A program made the position numbers and the translations under genes. From the IMG/VR virus record IMGVR_UViG_3300047157_000186: a stretch of DNA of 64,000 nt; one strand, given 5' to 3'. How positions within the stretch are numbered: the first letter of the stretch is position 1; each line of letters opens with the position of its first letter. Source of the DNA: a virus (taxonomy: Duplodnaviria; Caudoviricetes). Of this stretch, positions 8,784 to 44,439 are shown one piece after another. The notes beneath the pieces were generated by a model, which did no database searches, was not told the origin of the DNA, and was given only the letters and a program-made list of their open reading frames with translations.

Positions 8784-10160
8784 ATGGCAAATTTATTAAA
8801 CGAAGCTGAGATCAAGAATACATGGGCACCGATTATCTCGGAAGCTACAGGTATCAACGAATCTAGCAAATTAGCGTGGATGTCGACTTACTGTCACAAC
8901 CACAAACTTTATGAAGACGCGAACATCATGTCTTTATCTAACAACCCTGGCCCAATGAACTTAACAGGTATGGGTGCAGTATCTTTTCCTGCTGGCGCTC
9001 CTGCAAACGGTGCAGCTGATGCAGCTAAAGGTTCTGGTGACAAAGCTCCAACATTATTGCCTTTGGCAATGCAAGTTGCTGCTCAAACTATCGGTTTAGA
9101 CTTAGTACCAGTAGTACCAATGGCTGGACCAATGGGATTATTGTCTTACTTAGACTTTACTTATGAAGGTGGTACTGTTGCATTAGGTGCAACTGCTCCA
9201 ACTTACATCAAAACAGCTTTAGCTAAAGCTGGTCTTGACGAAAATGTAGGTACATCAAGAATTGATGGAAAAAACATCATCAAGATTGTTGATGCAGTTG
9301 CTGCTGGTGAAACAATCGCTGACAGATATGCTGACGCTTCATTAGTTGCTGCATTAGAAGACCACATTGCTGGATTCTCTGGTGCTGACGCTAACGGTAA
9401 GCCAATGTCAAGAGAAGTTGGTGAAAGAACTGCTGATAAAGTAATGGGTCTTTCTTTATTCTCTAAAAGTGTTGCTGCTGAAACTTTCCAAGTTGCTGCT
9501 GCAGTTACAAGAGAACAAGTACAAGATTTAAAACAATTCGGTGTAGATGCTGTTGCTCAAGTTGAGTCAGTATTAACTAACGAATTAACTCAATCTATCA
9601 ACAACCACATCTTAACTAAGATGAGAGCTATCGCTGAAGAAGGAATTACTGAAGTTGCTTTAGATTACACTTTAGGTGGAAACACTTACGGTGATGTTAA
9701 CAGAAGAATCCTTACTCACGTATTGGCTGCTGCTAACTTAATCGCTAACAGAGGTAGAAGAGGTGCTGGTAACTTCGCTGTAGTTGATGCTAAATTAGCT
9801 TCAGCTTTACAAGGTGTTGCTGGTTTCGTACCAAACCCAATGGCTAACACATTCAATCAAGTTGCAGGTGCAATCTACCCAGTAGGTTCAGTTGCTGGTA
9901 TCAATGTTTACACTGATCCAAACTTAGCATTCGAAGGTGATGTTAATGGAAAGCACGAAATTCTAGTAGGTAGAAAAGGTGACGGTAACGGTGCTGGATT
10001 AGTATTCATGCCTTACTTAATGGCTGAATCAGTTCAAATGATCGCTGAAGGAACTATGGCTCCTAAAGTAGCGGTTAAATCTAGATACGCTCTAGTTGAA
10101 GCTGGTTTCCACCCAGAAACTGCATACCAAAAATTCAAAGTAGCTGGATTAAAACTATAA
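8784..10160 (+). CDS. gp23: Major capsid protein (T4 gp23-like)
   Basis: IGLDLVPVVPMAGPMGLLSYL, SKSVAAETFQVAAAVTREQVQDLK, RGRRGAGNF, FMPYLMA, KSRYAL; strong codon bias. Confidence 0.95.
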   Translation: MANLLNEAEIKNTWAPIISEATGINESSKLAWMSTYCHNHKLYEDANIMSLSNNPGPMNLTGMGAVSFPAGAPANGAADAAKGSGDKAPTLLPLAMQVAAQTIGLDLVPVVPMAGPMGLLSYLDFTYEGGTVALGATAPTYIKTALAKAGLDENVGTSRIDGKNIIKIVDAVAAGETIADRYADASLVAALEDHIAGFSGADANGKPMSREVGERTADKVMGLSLFSKSVAAETFQVAAAVTREQVQDLKQFGVDAVAQVESVLTNELTQSINNHILTKMRAIAEEGITEVALDYTLGGNTYGDVNRRILTHVLAAANLIANRGRRGAGNFAVVDAKLASALQGVAGFVPNPMANTFNQVAGAIYPVGSVAGINVYTDPNLAFEGDVNGKHEILVGRKGDGNGAGLVFMPYLMAESVQMIAEGTMAPKVAVKSRYALVEAGFHPETAYQKFKVAGLKL

Positions 10161-10189
10161 TCTAAACACTTAGAACAATTGATATAAAA

Positions 10190-10213
10190 GGCTGCCTTCG
10201 GGCGGCCTTTTTT
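10190..10213 (+). terminator. Rho-independent terminator after the capsid gene
   Basis: GGCTGCC-TTCG-GGCGGCC followed by T6. Confidence 0.9.
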
Positions 10214-10287
10214 ATTTCTAGAAATATTTAAAATATTAAGAGGATATATAATATATTAACAAGGTAATTTAAAACAAAATAATAATT

Positions 10288-32883: not shown

Positions 32884-32914
32884 TTTACAACTTTTCCGAA
32901 AATAAACGCTTAAA

Positions 32915-32948
32915 TATTTTTTTATGTCGTTTATTTGTGGTATATTAG
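32915..32948 (+). promoter_or_regulatory. Early-class promoter
   Basis: TTTTTATGTC...GTGGTATATTAG. Confidence 0.8.
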
Positions 32949-32975
32949 TAGTATAATTAAAACAGAGAGAGTCAT

Positions 32976-33430: not shown

Positions 33431-34036
33431 ATGCCAAAACAACTCAGTTACCGCGAACTATCAGAAAATTTTATCAAGTCAAAATCAGAAAAAGATTACA
33501 ATGCGTTATATCAACGTGTAAAACCAGGACTTAGAAATTATATTTCAAATGTAGTCAAAGATGTGAATGCCACAGAAGATGTTCTAACAAACACACTAAC
33601 TAAAATGTGGACTAAGATTGATCAATATAATCCATCATATCAAATCACAACGTGGTTATACAGAATTGCATTCAACGAATGTTTAGGTTGGATACGCCAA
33701 CGTAATTCTAAATATAGTATTGAAACTATGAAAGAATACGGTATTGAAATTTCTGATCAATATGCTCACACATCAGCTCGTGATTTATTGATTGAGAACG
33801 AAACAAAAACAGAATCAGATTGGTATGAAGAAGATGATTATTTACAAGCACGTTATGAACTAGCTCTTGCAAATATAGAGTCACTAAAACCAATGTATAA
33901 AGAGATTATTGAAGATCGTCTTCTTAATAATATGAAATATGAAGATATTGCTGCTAAGCATAATCTACCACTTCAAACTATTAAAAACAGAATTCGTAGA
34001 GGTAAATCTATTATTGCAGAAAGTATGGATTATTAA
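33431..34036 (+). CDS. ECF-type RNA polymerase sigma factor
   Basis: Region 2 EDVLTNTLTKMWTKIDQYNPSYQITTWLYRIAFN; region 4 MKYEDIAAKHNLPLQTIKNRIRRGK. Confidence 0.9.
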   Translation: MPKQLSYRELSENFIKSKSEKDYNALYQRVKPGLRNYISNVVKDVNATEDVLTNTLTKMWTKIDQYNPSYQITTWLYRIAFNECLGWIRQRNSKYSIETMKEYGIEISDQYAHTSARDLLIENETKTESDWYEEDDYLQARYELALANIESLKPMYKEIIEDRLLNNMKYEDIAAKHNLPLQTIKNRIRRGKSIIAESMDY

Positions 34037-34199: not shown

Positions 34200-34283
34200 A
34201 CAAAATAAAACACATTGGTATAATATAAGTGAACAACAAAAAAAAAGGTTCTTTGATTTATTGGTAGAGAAAATACGTTAGAT

Positions 34284-34365
34284 GCTCGGGTGATGAAATC
34301 GGTAAACATGTTCGACTTAAAATCGAATGGCCACAGCCTTGCGGGTTCGAGTCCCGCCCCGAGCA
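34284..34365 (+). tRNA. tRNA-Leu(TAA)
   Basis: GCTCGGG/CCCGAGC acceptor, TTCGA-CTTAAAA-TCGAA arm, variable arm, TTCGAGT. Confidence 0.95.
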
Positions 34366-34425
34366 CCCAAATATTTTTGGTAGACGTGTCTGTTAATTTT
34401 CTTAAGTACCATAGATATATAATCT

Positions 34426-34860
34426 ATGAAAGATAAAGTAACAAAAGATGAATTAGTAGAAGCTATTAATTCTTCAATAACAATGGCACAAGCAGCAGAC
34501 AAAGTTGATTTAGCATTTACAACATTTAAAAGATACGCTAAAAAACATGGTCTATATAATGCTAATCAAGGTGGCAAAGGAACACGTCGACCACTTAAAA
34601 AACTTCAAGATGTTTTTTCAGGTAAAGAACATTTAGTAACAAACCATCTTAAATATCGTTTGATACTAGAAGGCTTTAAGACCGAACAATGTGAGGAATG
34701 TGGTATAACAGAATGGAATGGTAAAAATATTTCTTTTGAACTTGATCATGTAAATGGAAAAAGAATGGACAACTCATTAGAAAATCTAAAAATTCTATGT
34801 CCAAACTGTCATTCACAAACACCAACATTTAGAGGTAGAAATATTCGTATGGACCAGTAG
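34426..34860 (+). mobile_element. Free-standing HNH homing endonuclease inside the tRNA array
   Basis: CEECG...ELDHVNG...DNSLENLKILCPNCHSQT with an N-terminal HTH-like segment; own late promoter at 34414; stop codon lies within tRNA-Arg. Confidence 0.85.
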
Positions 34861-34927
34861 CTCAGCTGGATAGAGCATCTGCCTTCTAAGCAGACGGTCA
34901 CAGGTTCGAATCCTGTCTGGTTCACCA
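34851..34927 (+). tRNA. tRNA-Arg(TCT), CCA encoded
   Basis: GGACCAG/CTGGTTC acceptor, TCTGC-CTTCTAA-GCAGA arm. Confidence 0.95.
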
Positions 34928-34950
34928 ATATCGACTGTCAGTCAAGCTTT

Positions 34951-35071
34951 AGAGAGGTAGTGAAGCTGTAGTTAAGAAGTAGAGTGTATTAATTGTCGAA
35001 AAAGGGTTTATAGTAGACAGGCGTTACTCATTGCACTTAACCAGAAACCCCGAAAGACCCGAAGCCTCTCT
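34951..35071 (+). ncRNA. Candidate structured RNA between tRNA-Arg and tRNA-Glu
   Basis: AGAGAGG/CCTCTCT closing stem, GTTAAG/CTTAAC, GAGT/ACTC, TTGTC/GACAG; loop GGGTTT complementary to AAACCC. Confidence 0.5.
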
Positions 35072-35076
35072 TATTT

Positions 35077-35148
35077 GCTCCGTTCGTCTAACGGTTAGGA
35101 CATTAGGTTTTCATCCTAAAAATAGGAGTTCGATTCTCCTACGGAGTA
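35077..35148 (+). tRNA. tRNA-Glu(TTC), CCA not encoded
   Basis: GCTCCGT/ACGGAGT acceptor, TTAGG-TTTTCAT-CCTAA arm. Confidence 0.93.
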
Positions 35149-35157
35149 CAACAGATT

Positions 35158-35234
35158 GATCTCTTAGCTCAGTTGGCTAGAGCATCTCACTTTTAATGAG
35201 AGGGTCCAGGGTTCGAGTCCCTGAGGGATCACCA
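35158..35234 (+). tRNA. tRNA-Lys(TTT), CCA encoded
   Basis: GATCTCT/AGGGATC acceptor, TCTCA-CTTTTAA-TGAGA arm. Confidence 0.95.
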
Positions 35235-35237
35235 TAT

Positions 35238-35314
35238 AGTCAAGTATCTCCTCAAGCTTATACCTTGTAGAAAGAGTAATTGGTTACATGAGAGTTCAAA
35301 TCTCTCCTTGACTA
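35238..35314 (+). ncRNA. Non-canonical tRNA-like RNA: perfect acceptor and T-arm, rearranged D/anticodon region
   Basis: AGTCAAG/CTTGACT plus discriminator A, GAGAG-TTCAAAT-CTCTC T-arm, internal CAAG-CTTATAC-CTTG and GTAA-TTGG-TTAC hairpins. Confidence 0.75.
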
Positions 35315-35679: not shown

Positions 35680-35684
35680 CATAA

Positions 35685-35906
35685 TCGAGAAATAAAGACA
35701 ACTCGGGACAAGCATAAGAGTCCTTAAACAATGCAGGCCACTACCTCGCGAGCCTACAATAACATAAAACGTGGGGTCTGGGATTCTAAAGGACATAACA
35801 AACCTACCCAGTAGTTTGACTAATTTTCATGTGGTAAGACACTAATGCGTTTTATTGAAGAGAAAGAAAAACCGTTAAAATCCAGTCTAACAAGTCTTAG
35901 TTAGGC
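35685..35906 (+). ncRNA. Candidate structured RNA between tRNA-Gly and tRNA-Asp
   Basis: AGGC/GCCT, ATAAAACGT/GCGTTTTAT, CTGGG/CCCAG and GTCTAAC/GTTAGGC stems; TAAGAC complementary to loop GTCTTA; no good ORF. Confidence 0.4.
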
Positions 35907-35913
35907 GCAATAT

Positions 35914-38641: not shown

Positions 38642-38684
38642 CAAAATATAAATCCGGAAACTAATTTGAAAATAATTAGCTCCG

Positions 38685-38747
38685 GATTTTTTTATGTCAA
38701 ATATTTGTGGTATATTAGTAGTATACTAATGGAGGTTACTACCTCAC
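38685..38747 (+). promoter_or_regulatory. Early promoter plus GAGGT/ACCTC leader hairpin
   Basis: 38704-38747 matches 46369-46412 at 43 of 44 nt. Confidence 0.8.
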
Positions 38748-43269: not shown

Positions 43270-44439
43270 ATGAGATTAGTAGAATCATTTAAAAATTTTA
43301 AGCTTTTATTAGAAGCCAACAATTCTCTTAAATTAAATGTTCCAAAGGATATTTTAGAATTGCATAAACTATTTAAACAAAATGGCAAGGAATTGTTTAT
43401 TGTGGGTGGTGCAGTGAGAGATGCATTGCTAGGTAAAAAGCCAAAGGATTTTGATTTGGCAACTGATGCGTTTCCTGCAGAAGTTATAGATATTGTTACT
43501 AACGCTGGTTACTCAACTACTGGAGAAGTTGGTCATCAATTTGGAGTAGTTATTGTAAATGTACCTTCGGATCCAGCGGGTGTTGAGATTGCAACATTTA
43601 GAGAAGATGTTGGAAAGGGAAGAAGACCAGATGCAGTGGAATATTCTACAATTGATAAAGATGTATTAAGAAGAGATCTAACAATTAATGCACTATTTTA
43701 TGATATGGGCAGAAAAGAGATTGTAGATTTAGTTGGAGGTTTAGATGATATAAAAAACTCAAAAATTAGAACAGTTGGTGTCGCCGCAGATAGATTTGCA
43801 GAAGATCCACTTAGAAAATTAAGGGCGTTGCGATTTGCAGGTAGAACAGGATCAAAATTAGAAAAAGAAACTGCAGATGCTATTTTAATCGATAATAGTT
43901 TAGAAGGTATTAGTTCTGAAAGAATTAGAGATGAATTTAAGAAATCTATTGTTTCTGCAAAATCAGCAAAGAGTTATTTAAACATGGTATCAGAATTTAA
44001 TTTGTGGTCAATCATGTTTCCATCTTTACAAATTAACGAAAAGTTTATTAACACTAACAATTGGATAGTACAGATTGCAATTCTATTTAGTAATAATGAT
44101 AATGATACAATACAGAAGGAATTAAATAAAGCATCGTTTACAAACGGTGAAATTGATTCAATATTATTCCTAAAGAGTTTAATGACGTTTGATATAAATG
44201 ATGTATTTAATTTACATAAACAATATATGAAGATTCAAATATCTTCTAAATTAGACACCAAAACTATTCTAGAATTTGCAAAAATTAATAAACTCGACAC
44301 TAAAACTTTAAAAGTGTTCTTTAAATATAAACCATCAACCAAAGGTGGAGATGTCATGAAAAAGTTTGGCTTAAAAGGATCTGCAATATCCGATAAGATC
44401 AATCAAATAGAAGCAGAGAAGTTCAGAAGTCTTATTTAG
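43270..44439 (+). CDS. cca: CCA tRNA nucleotidyltransferase / poly(A) polymerase family (class II)
   Basis: VGGAVRDALLG, DFDLAT, EIATFR, RRDLTINAL, RFAEDPLRKLRALRF, ERIRDE; late promoter at 43258. Confidence 0.9.
   Translation: MRLVESFKNFKLLLEANNSLKLNVPKDILELHKLFKQNGKELFIVGGAVRDALLGKKPKDFDLATDAFPAEVIDIVTNAGYSTTGEVGHQFGVVIVNVPSDPAGVEIATFREDVGKGRRPDAVEYSTIDKDVLRRDLTINALFYDMGRKEIVDLVGGLDDIKNSKIRTVGVAADRFAEDPLRKLRALRFAGRTGSKLEKETADAILIDNSLEGISSERIRDEFKKSIVSAKSAKSYLNMVSEFNLWSIMFPSLQINEKFINTNNWIVQIAILFSNNDNDTIQKELNKASFTNGEIDSILFLKSLMTFDINDVFNLHKQYMKIQISSKLDTKTILEFAKINKLDTKTLKVFFKYKPSTKGGDVMKKFGLKGSAISDKINQIEAEKFRSLI

Follow-up and report, generated by a model that had tools for sequence, protein, structure and literature searches.

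Small non-tRNA RNAs encoded within phage tRNA clusters are a long-standing puzzle, and species 1 and 2 of phage T4 and the stable RNAs of phage T5 have stayed unexplained for decades. The two T4 species (rnaC, 139 nt; rnaD, 119 nt) are annotated as stable RNAs, their function being unassigned. In T5, RNAI, RNAIII, RNAIV, RNA1, RNA2, RNA2H, RNA3 and RNAX are recorded as "stable RNA with unknown functions"; they are interspersed with tRNA and HNH endonuclease genes and include several of about 103-107 nt as well as some that are tRNA-like. GOLLD and ROOL are orphan structured RNAs of phages and prophages, which are often found near tRNA islands and likewise have no assigned function (PMC12286853). 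Here we describe a pseudoknotted RNA element of 121 nt at positions 34951-35071 of a 64,000-nucleotide stretch of viral DNA (IMG/VR record IMGVR_UViG_3300047157_000186, Caudoviricetes), the whole of which is called the window in the following. Comparative analysis identifies the element as a copy of a large and widespread phage RNA family that is absent from Rfam. In sequence and fold we rate it as a new class, although orphan RNAs in phage tRNA clusters are in themselves a known phenomenon, and it is a defined, testable addition to that puzzle.

Relation to described RNAs

The likeness to the T4 RNAs, which are of similar size, is one of position only: both lie on the same strand as the tRNAs of a phage cluster and beside a homing endonuclease gene (segB in T4). 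Homology was rejected both by reading the sequences and with R1, a covariance model built in this work, which with filters off gave at best 12.8 bits in the T4 tRNA region and nothing at 70908-71171. Moreover, T4 rnaC ends in a tRNA-like T arm, whereas the core of the present RNA is a pseudoknotted junction. Homology to the T5 stable RNAs was rejected likewise, R1 with filters off finding no match in T5 27.5-42 kb (best 10.4 bits); T5 itself lacks the family, although the T5-like Proteus phage Stubb has a member. GOLLD and ROOL (RF02032 and others) are 400-800 nt long and form multimeric cages, whereas the RNAs described here are 85-125 nt long and unrelated in sequence and fold; the GOLLD and ROOL models of Rfam do not match the element.

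The initial annotation could assign the element to no known RNA class, and this still holds: in Rfam 15 nothing overlaps the element at E values up to 10 when the window and 18 other loci are scanned, and a scan of 9 more loci at the gathering threshold gave no match. With respect to tRNAs and tRNA-like RNAs (RF00005, tmRNA, YrlA) there is neither an ARAGORN nor an Rfam call at 34951-35071; a YrlA row of low score (15.6 bits, E 8.2) begins in tRNA-Arg and reaches 34972. A likeness to RNase P RNA (P4-like pseudoknot, A-rich flanking strands) was dropped because there is no Rfam support and the RNA is far too small. In the literature searched, no printed match to GAAAGACCCGAA in such a context was found; the catalogue of 8,495 viral candidate RNAs (PMC10690425) may include the motif.

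Members and distribution

By an exact 30-mer search, two further viral contigs were found to hold all 121 nt unchanged, between an open reading frame (ORF) and tRNA-Glu in one and between tRNA-Leu and tRNA-Arg in the other. A pattern made of the conserved blocks was found in 118 viral contigs (90 distinct sequences), the circularly permuted form of the motif in 23 more, and a relaxed pattern in at least 120 metagenome contigs. Diverged copies were also present among 69 related-phage loci that had been collected via the neighbouring sigma factor. Applied to 185,579 prokaryote species genomes, the same relaxed pattern hit only 10 contigs, all of them from metagenome-assembled genomes, so that the RNA is essentially a phage RNA.

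On the window R1 returns the copy in full length at 34948-35074 (118.3 bits, E 1e-26) and nothing else significant. The copy has the family's defining features in order, namely helix P1, the AGUGAAGCU block, helix P2a, the pseudoknot between the loop and the 3' strand, and the GAAAGACCC-GAA block. It should be noted that the window sequence is part of the seed alignment of R1, and the independent support for membership is therefore that given by the exact and near-exact copies in other contigs.

Among cultured phages, R1 finds members in Pseudomonas phage Milchi (unclassified Caudoviricetes, 70.8 bits), the jumbo phage RaK2 of Klebsiella (Alcyoneusvirus, 66 bits), Erwinia phage pEp_SNUABM_01 (Vequintavirinae, 60 bits), Pectobacterium phage PM2 (Tevenvirinae, 46 bits), Cellulophaga phage phi14:2 (Crassvirales, 44 bits), Proteus phage Stubb (Demerecviridae, 44 bits), E. 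coli phage mogra (Mosigvirus, 35 bits) and Rhizobium phage RHEph12 (unclassified Caudoviricetes, 28 bits). The members thus span T4-like, T5-like, rV5-like, jumbo and crAss-like phages as well as phages of Pseudomonas and Rhizobium. BLAST adds further phages of Klebsiella, Proteus, Pectobacterium, E. coli, Vibrio and Rhizobium, in which the stretch is nearly always unannotated; current phage records are either blank there or carry small spurious ORFs, which is of consequence for annotation. The RNA is abundant in aquatic viromes, and the element was found in contigs from four seawater metatranscriptome studies, which is not proof of transcription. Because there are carriers among the cultured phages of E. 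coli (mogra and vB_EcoM_G2469), Klebsiella, Pseudomonas, Proteus and Erwinia, bench study is feasible at once and the function of the RNA can be tested directly in them.

Fold and covariation

The RNA is a three-way junction of P1, the base of a long P2 arm and a pseudoknot helix, the latter being formed between the apical loop of P2 and the strand immediately 3' of P2. The coordinates of all strands are given in Table 1. Two near-invariant single strands line the junction, AGUGAAG, which together with the following GCU makes up the block AGUGAAGCU, and GAAAGACCC-GAA, which with its preceding C is the most conserved unpaired block and presumably the functional site; around the pseudoknotted junction there are in total about 30 near-invariant unpaired nucleotides. 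In the apical loop GAAnAA and AGUA are kept in every group. Orphan structured RNAs with unpaired nucleotides so well conserved are rare, and past cases have often proved to be ribozymes or ligand sensors.

Folding of the single sequence is not significant. The minimum free energy (MFE) of the 121-mer is -24.8 kcal/mol as compared with -22.3 +/- 3.4 kcal/mol for dinucleotide shuffles (z -0.75), and the z-score for 149 nt (+0.24) is equally uninformative. Since the energy of the one sequence is no better than chance, the fold rests on the homologues. In a set of 29 sequences of the long-arm type present in the window, 95.9% of the cells are paired, all five helices are supported, and 19 of the 34 pairs have changed on both sides. 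The covariation score of this set is 0.365 as compared with 0.168 after shuffling, a score that none of 500 shuffles reached, and partners slid against each other gave at most 0.137. In a wider alignment of 88 sequences the paired fraction over P1, the P2 base and the pseudoknot is 89%, with a score of 0.392 versus 0.183 for the shuffled alignments (again 0 of 500 reaching the score) and at most 0.176 for slid partners.

Helix by helix, the picture is the same. P1 shows both-side changes at all 8 pairs and is 87.6% paired in the 88 and 93.9% in the 29 sequences. P2a and P2b are paired in 100% of the 29 sequences although the bases differ (pair 31/101: AU 16, GC 13; pair 34/98: AU 14, GC 13), and the P2a helix CUG/CAG becomes CUC/GAG in other groups. 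P2c is 93% paired in the 29 sequences, and four of the five pairs of P2d have both-side changes. With respect to the pseudoknot, pair 65/116 is GC in 55, AU in 26, GU in 6 and UA in 1 of the 88 sequences and unpaired in none, and the second variable position is UA in 51, AU in 23, CG in 4 and otherwise in 10. Compensated variants of the whole helix are AGGUUU/AAACCU, GGGUUA/UAACCC, GGGUUC/GAACCC, GGCAUU/AAUGCC and GGCUC/GAGCC. In 25 permuted sequences the pseudoknot pairs covary freely (GC 16/CG 9; UA 17/CG 7; UA 16/AU 4/GC 3), and P2a switches between GC (14) and CG (11). Every helix and the pseudoknot are thus backed by covariation, by which the element is confirmed, at the level of sequence comparison, as a real folded pseudoknotted RNA. 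All the stems that the initial annotation had proposed, from the closing stem to the UUGUC/GACAG arm, were found at the coordinates it gave, and the pseudoknot that it had suggested from the complementarity of the loop GGGUUU (35004) to AAACCC (35045) is borne out by the covariation in the 88, the 25 permuted and the 29 sequences.

Coding potential was considered and rejected. The sole ORF overlapping the element (35031-35159, 42 aa) extends into tRNA-Glu, and the insertions and deletions in the family are not multiples of three.

Table 1. Features of the window in and around the pseudoknotted element
Feature	Position	Strand	Basis or remarks
Sigma factor gene	33431-34036		phage-encoded
tRNA-Leu	34283-34369		first in array
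HNH endonuclease ORF, 144 aa	34426-34860	+	Pfam PF01844, 23.6 bits; ORF list
tRNA-Arg(UCU), CCA encoded	34851-34927	+	ARAGORN; Rfam, 72.1 bits; upstream neighbour of element
Leader, 23 nt, contains CUGUCAGUCAAGCUUU	34928-34950	+	alignment of window, L005, L020 and L022
Pseudoknotted element, 121 nt	34951-35071	+	
P1, 5' strand AGAGAGGU	34951-34958	+	pairs with 35064-35071; 8-bp closing stem AGAGAGG(U)/(G)CCUCUCU
Junction strand J1/2, AGUGAAG	34959-34965	+	unpaired, conserved
P2a CUG, UA bulge and P2b GUUAAG, 5' strands	34966-34976	+	pair with 35036-35044: CUG 34966-34968 with CAG 35042-35044; GUUAAG 34971-34976 with CUUAAC 35036-35041
P2c GAGUG and P2d UUGUC, 5' strands, internal loop between	34982-34997	+	GAGUG 34982-34986 with UACUC 35025-35029; UUGUC 34993-34997 with GACAG 35016-35020
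Apical loop: GAAAAA, pseudoknot 5' strand GGGUUU (35004-35009), AUAGUA	34998-35015	+	
P2d, P2c, P2b and P2a, 3' strands	35016-35044	+	
Pseudoknot 3' strand AAACCC	35045-35050	+	pairs with 35004-35009
Junction strand C-GAAAGACCC-GAA	35051-35063	+	most conserved unpaired block; presumed functional site
P1, 3' strand GCCUCUCU	35064-35071	+	
Trailer, 5 nt, then tRNA-Glu(UUC)	35072-35149	+	tRNA-Glu 35077-35149; ARAGORN and Rfam

Permuted, embedded and scaffolded forms

The family occurs in several architectures. In the permuted copies, which turned up in the genome and the viral scans, P1 is capped by a tetraloop, e.g., UUCG or GAAA, whereas a new helix on the other side of P2 bears the ends; GGUUGAAG replaces the AGUGAAG block. 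Some of the permuted copies have no P1 at all, among them a type closed by a long helix (e.g., L245). The permuted copies fill intergenic gaps between co-oriented ORFs, 13-90 nt 5' of start codons and without a terminator. The genes that follow them encode a 2OG-Fe(II) oxygenase, a DUF3307 protein, an RNase H-like protein, UvsX and a zinc-ribbon protein (Pfam), a 602-aa ORF and others that have no family match. In other cases the motif is an internal domain of a conserved non-coding RNA of larger size (about 270 nt), which spans GGAGAGGAACUUC to GGGUACGCUC (alignment A6: L316 at about 450-800, L300, L279, L281 and L234) and for which there is no Rfam family. Finally, short forms of about 85 nt exist, and the family ranges from 85 to 125 nt.

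A further architecture was seen once. In the locus L249 (about 1345-1545, + strand) a tRNA-Leu-like body with acceptor stem, D arm and T arm carries the permuted motif in place of the anticodon and variable arms. Read from the sequence alone and unfolded, this amounts to a natural tRNA scaffold with a passenger RNA. It is similar to other tRNA-scaffolded RNAs (T4 rnaC, T5 RNA1 and RNA2, and engineered scaffolds), whereas the window copy is free-standing between tRNAs, which would themselves supply the processing sites.

What is constant over all architectures is AGUGAAG (or GGUUGAAG), P2a, the pseudoknot, and GAAAGACCC plus three bases. Since this core is found permuted, without P1, scaffolded by a tRNA and embedded in a larger RNA, it is a portable module for which the position of the ends is immaterial. 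The natural variants delimit a minimal core of about 60-70 nt and suggest that phages use tRNA-processing signals to make passenger RNAs.

Association with tRNA genes

The initial annotation had placed the element between two tRNAs, which is correct for the window, where 34927 is the last position of tRNA-Arg and 35077 the first of tRNA-Glu. The association is a property of the family. Among 101 distinct loci of the standard form, 86 have a tRNA on the same strand within 1.5 kb and none has one on the opposite strand. A tRNA starts within 15 nt downstream in 63 loci and ends within 15 nt upstream in 40, both being the case in 30; some of the loci scored as having no upstream tRNA hold a conserved tRNA-like RNA that ARAGORN does not call. 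Release of the element by processing of the flanking tRNAs, as had been suggested, would fit this family-wide context.

Other non-tRNA RNAs were seen in the same surroundings. In L106 a GOLLD RNA (758-1169, - strand; RF02032, 257 bits) shares the tRNA array with a copy of the pseudoknotted RNA, and in L300 a tmRNA (9813-10216; RF00023, 56.4 bits) lies on a metagenome contig in which the motif is present in embedded form alongside tRNA genes. In L002 (346-452) a conserved non-coding stretch of about 107 nt with the closing stem GGGGGAGC...GAAGCCCCC stands just 5' of tRNA-Leu; the same type is found in 10 loci, several of which are the same contigs fetched twice, and is not present in the window.

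Proposed function

We consider it fairly probable, on the basis of genomic context and fold, that the element is a small RNA which RNase P and the 3' maturation of a tRNA set free and which acts in trans through its junction pocket. The element would be transcribed together with the tRNA array as one cassette. Maturation of the 3' end of tRNA-Arg would then define the 5' side of an element-bearing precursor, and cleavage by RNase P at 35077 in front of tRNA-Glu would give its 3' end. The product would be a stable RNA of roughly 125-150 nt, the conserved junction pocket of which would bind a putative partner, be it a macromolecule of the host or the phage or a small molecule. The element is a self-contained module, and binding of the partner is most likely in trans.

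Several points weigh against this proposal. First, 15 of the 101 standard-form loci and most of the permuted copies have no tRNA nearby, and the permuted copies may act on their transcript in cis. Second, conserved unpaired strands and natural circular permutation are also marks of self-cleaving ribozymes. Third, the metatranscriptome contigs are compatible with carry-over of DNA and are uninformative on ends, strand and transcription; their breaks at 34965-34969 are located where a conserved block borders on variable sequence, a place at which assembly graphs tend to branch. Fourth, that AGTGAAGCT, AACC and GAAAGACCC do not vary in alignment A3 is due in part to the search pattern with which the sequences were collected. 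In a metagenome sample chosen on the pseudoknot and the 3' block alone, and not on the 5' block, the latter was nevertheless strongly conserved, being AGTGAAGCT in 53 sequences and the variants AGTAAAGCT, AGTACGCT and AGTAACGCT, which differ by one or two bases, in 4, 4 and 3, respectively. Among nhmmer and covariance-model matches, which were not chosen on the 3' block, this block was GAAAGACCC or, in enterobacterial phages, GAAACACCC.

A broader alternative, which appears possible although rather doubtful, is that the RNA belongs to a new catalytic or ligand-binding class deployed as a free abundant module, the tRNA arrays being its production and processing platform only. In variants of this alternative it could be a self-cleaving ribozyme or a "sponge" for a universal small molecule, e.g., a nucleotide used in defence signalling.

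That the element is a ribozyme of a new class, self-cleaving or catalytic in some other way, which cuts polycistronic tRNA or mRNA precursors with the junction strands as active site, we regard as unlikely. The proposal would account for the approximately 30 near-invariant unpaired nucleotides around the pseudoknotted junction and for the natural permutation with capped helices, which is typical of hammerhead and twister ribozymes. Indeed, hammerhead types I-III and twister types P1, P3 and P5 likewise have a compact core at a helical junction with tertiary pairing, and their natural variants open a different helix and cap the others with loops, as is the case in this family. It would also explain why the element, which lacks its own promoter and terminator, always has the orientation of the genes on either side, and why it has spread over phages of very different hosts, as is expected if no specific protein is needed. 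The junction strands of 7, 1 and 13 nt do not, however, fit the hammerhead core, and the Rfam models of the hammerhead, twister, twister-sister, pistol, hatchet, HDV-like, hairpin and glmS ribozymes gave no match at E values up to 10 in the window and in 18 loci of both architectures. In addition, a self-cleaving RNA would be superfluous in tRNA arrays, where RNase P and the 3' processing enzymes already cut, and the tRNA-like scaffold of L249 and the embedding in a larger RNA suit a stable passenger better than a cutter.

Also improbable, in our estimate, is a small-molecule aptamer, which in tRNA arrays would be a free abundant sponge for a metabolite or signalling nucleotide and in the permuted copies a riboswitch-like sensor in the 5'-untranslated region. 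Aptamers are usually built in this way, with a pseudoknot and invariant nucleotides in a junction pocket; in many loci a ribosome-binding site follows the end of the permuted copy at a distance of 13-45 nt, and the very wide host range fits a universal ligand. Against this stands that the genes downstream of the permuted copies are unrelated, so that there is no regulon pointing to a ligand, that no expression platform is evident, that the window copy with its position between tRNAs cannot regulate a gene in cis, and that no known riboswitch model matches.

There is little to recommend the idea that the element is a structured spacer only, which in cis guides or protects the processing of neighbouring tRNAs or mRNAs, e.g., by blocking an exonuclease or as a boundary element. 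It is true that in most standard-form loci the RNA tightly abuts tRNAs and that permuted copies occupy the whole of the gaps between co-oriented ORFs. However, most of the neighbouring tRNAs in the same arrays, and the entire array of the closest relative (L005, see below), manage without it; a simple roadblock could dispense with the approximately 30 unpaired nucleotides that stay invariant over phages of Proteobacteria, Bacteroidota and marine hosts; and the motif is also found within a tRNA-like scaffold and within a larger RNA. A phage 6S-like RNA that mimics open promoter DNA and sequesters RNA polymerase, for which one could cite the small, highly structured RNA with its long irregular arm and the phage's own sigma factor, can practically be dismissed, as neither RF00013 nor its relatives match at E values up to 10, the RNA has 121 nt rather than the approximately 180 nt of 6S RNA, its core is a pseudoknotted three-way junction rather than a rod with a central bubble, and the arm is dispensable as shown by the short forms of about 85 nt.

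Likeness to the ribosomal RNAs was also considered. GAAAGACCC is a 9-mer identical to E. coli 23S rRNA 2057-2065 in the peptidyl-transferase loop, where the 23S sequence goes on with CGUGAACC; enterobacterial members have GAAACACCC in its place. The best local alignments of 47 members with 23S rRNA (21.6 and 21.1) were no better than those of shuffles (20.1 and 20.2), and the pseudoknot sequence that resembles 23S 2581-2587 varies freely in the permuted members. Mimicry of the peptidyl-transferase loop is, therefore, a weak post-hoc lead. A likeness to the 3' end of 16S rRNA (AACAAGG at 1499) was dropped, being a 7-mer only.

Origin of the window copy

The window belongs to a large AT-rich marine phage, and its history in the region of the element is mosaic. 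The closest relative, L005, has the same array, with a sigma factor gene that is 96% identical and a segment from tRNA-Glu to tRNA-Asp that is 98% identical, yet it has neither the HNH ORF nor the element. The tRNA-Leu and the tRNA-Arg of L005 are only 72% and 84% identical to those of the window, as compared with 96-98% in the flanks. By contrast, L022 has a tRNA-Arg that matches the one of the window with 100% identity, and the element is 100% identical to that of G001 and 95% to that of L022, although the sigma factor genes of G001 and L022 are only about 75% identical to that of the window. In G001 (212 kb) coding genes are 70-77% and tRNAs 93-95% identical, whereas the element together with tRNA-Glu is 99% identical over 223 nt. 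The 23-nt leader, too, has been inserted along with the element as compared with L005 and is common to G001. Because of these contrasts in identity, the block from tRNA-Leu through the HNH ORF, tRNA-Arg and the leader to the element appears to have been gained laterally. This is the pattern to be expected if a homing endonuclease brought about co-conversion of its surroundings, as has been shown for SegB in the tRNA region of T4 (PMC2330249).

The conservation among related phages that the initial annotation had looked to was thus found in part: the closest relative has no element, but in those relatives that do have one its conservation exceeds that of the coding genes. The metatranscriptome assemblies include variants of the array that skip the element. 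Judged from these comparisons, the element cassette is accessory and moves between phages.

Neighbouring genes and other conserved sequences

The element sits within a tRNA array in which all genes are on the same strand. The last codons of the HNH ORF overlap the start of tRNA-Arg, and 3' of tRNA-Glu the array continues with tRNA-Lys, a weak tRNA-like sequence, tRNA-Thr, tRNA-Gly, a 233-nt spacer and tRNA-Asp. Among the proteins encoded in the window are a prohead protease, a neck protein, an ATP-dependent DNA ligase, a sigma factor and a nucleotidyltransferase of the CCA-adding/poly(A) polymerase family (43270-44439; PF01743, 111 bits; PF12627). A CCA-adding-type enzyme fits a phage that matures its own tRNAs, several of which have no encoded CCA.

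The weak tRNA-like RNA (35238-35314; Rfam tRNA, 31.3 bits; no ARAGORN call) combines a T arm and an acceptor-like stem of 8 bp with an aberrant middle. Homologues are present in at least 25 other loci, in several of which (e.g., L074, L105 and L161) they stand directly 5' of the pseudoknotted RNA. The spacer between tRNA-Gly and tRNA-Asp (35681-35913) contains no real ORF, has nhmmer homologues in 16 other loci and is probably a second structured RNA of such arrays. Finally, sequences of about 65 nt at 38657-38731 and 32896-32963 match G001 at about 10 and at 3 places, respectively, with 84-95% identity; these are dispersed repeats and possibly promoter or regulatory elements.

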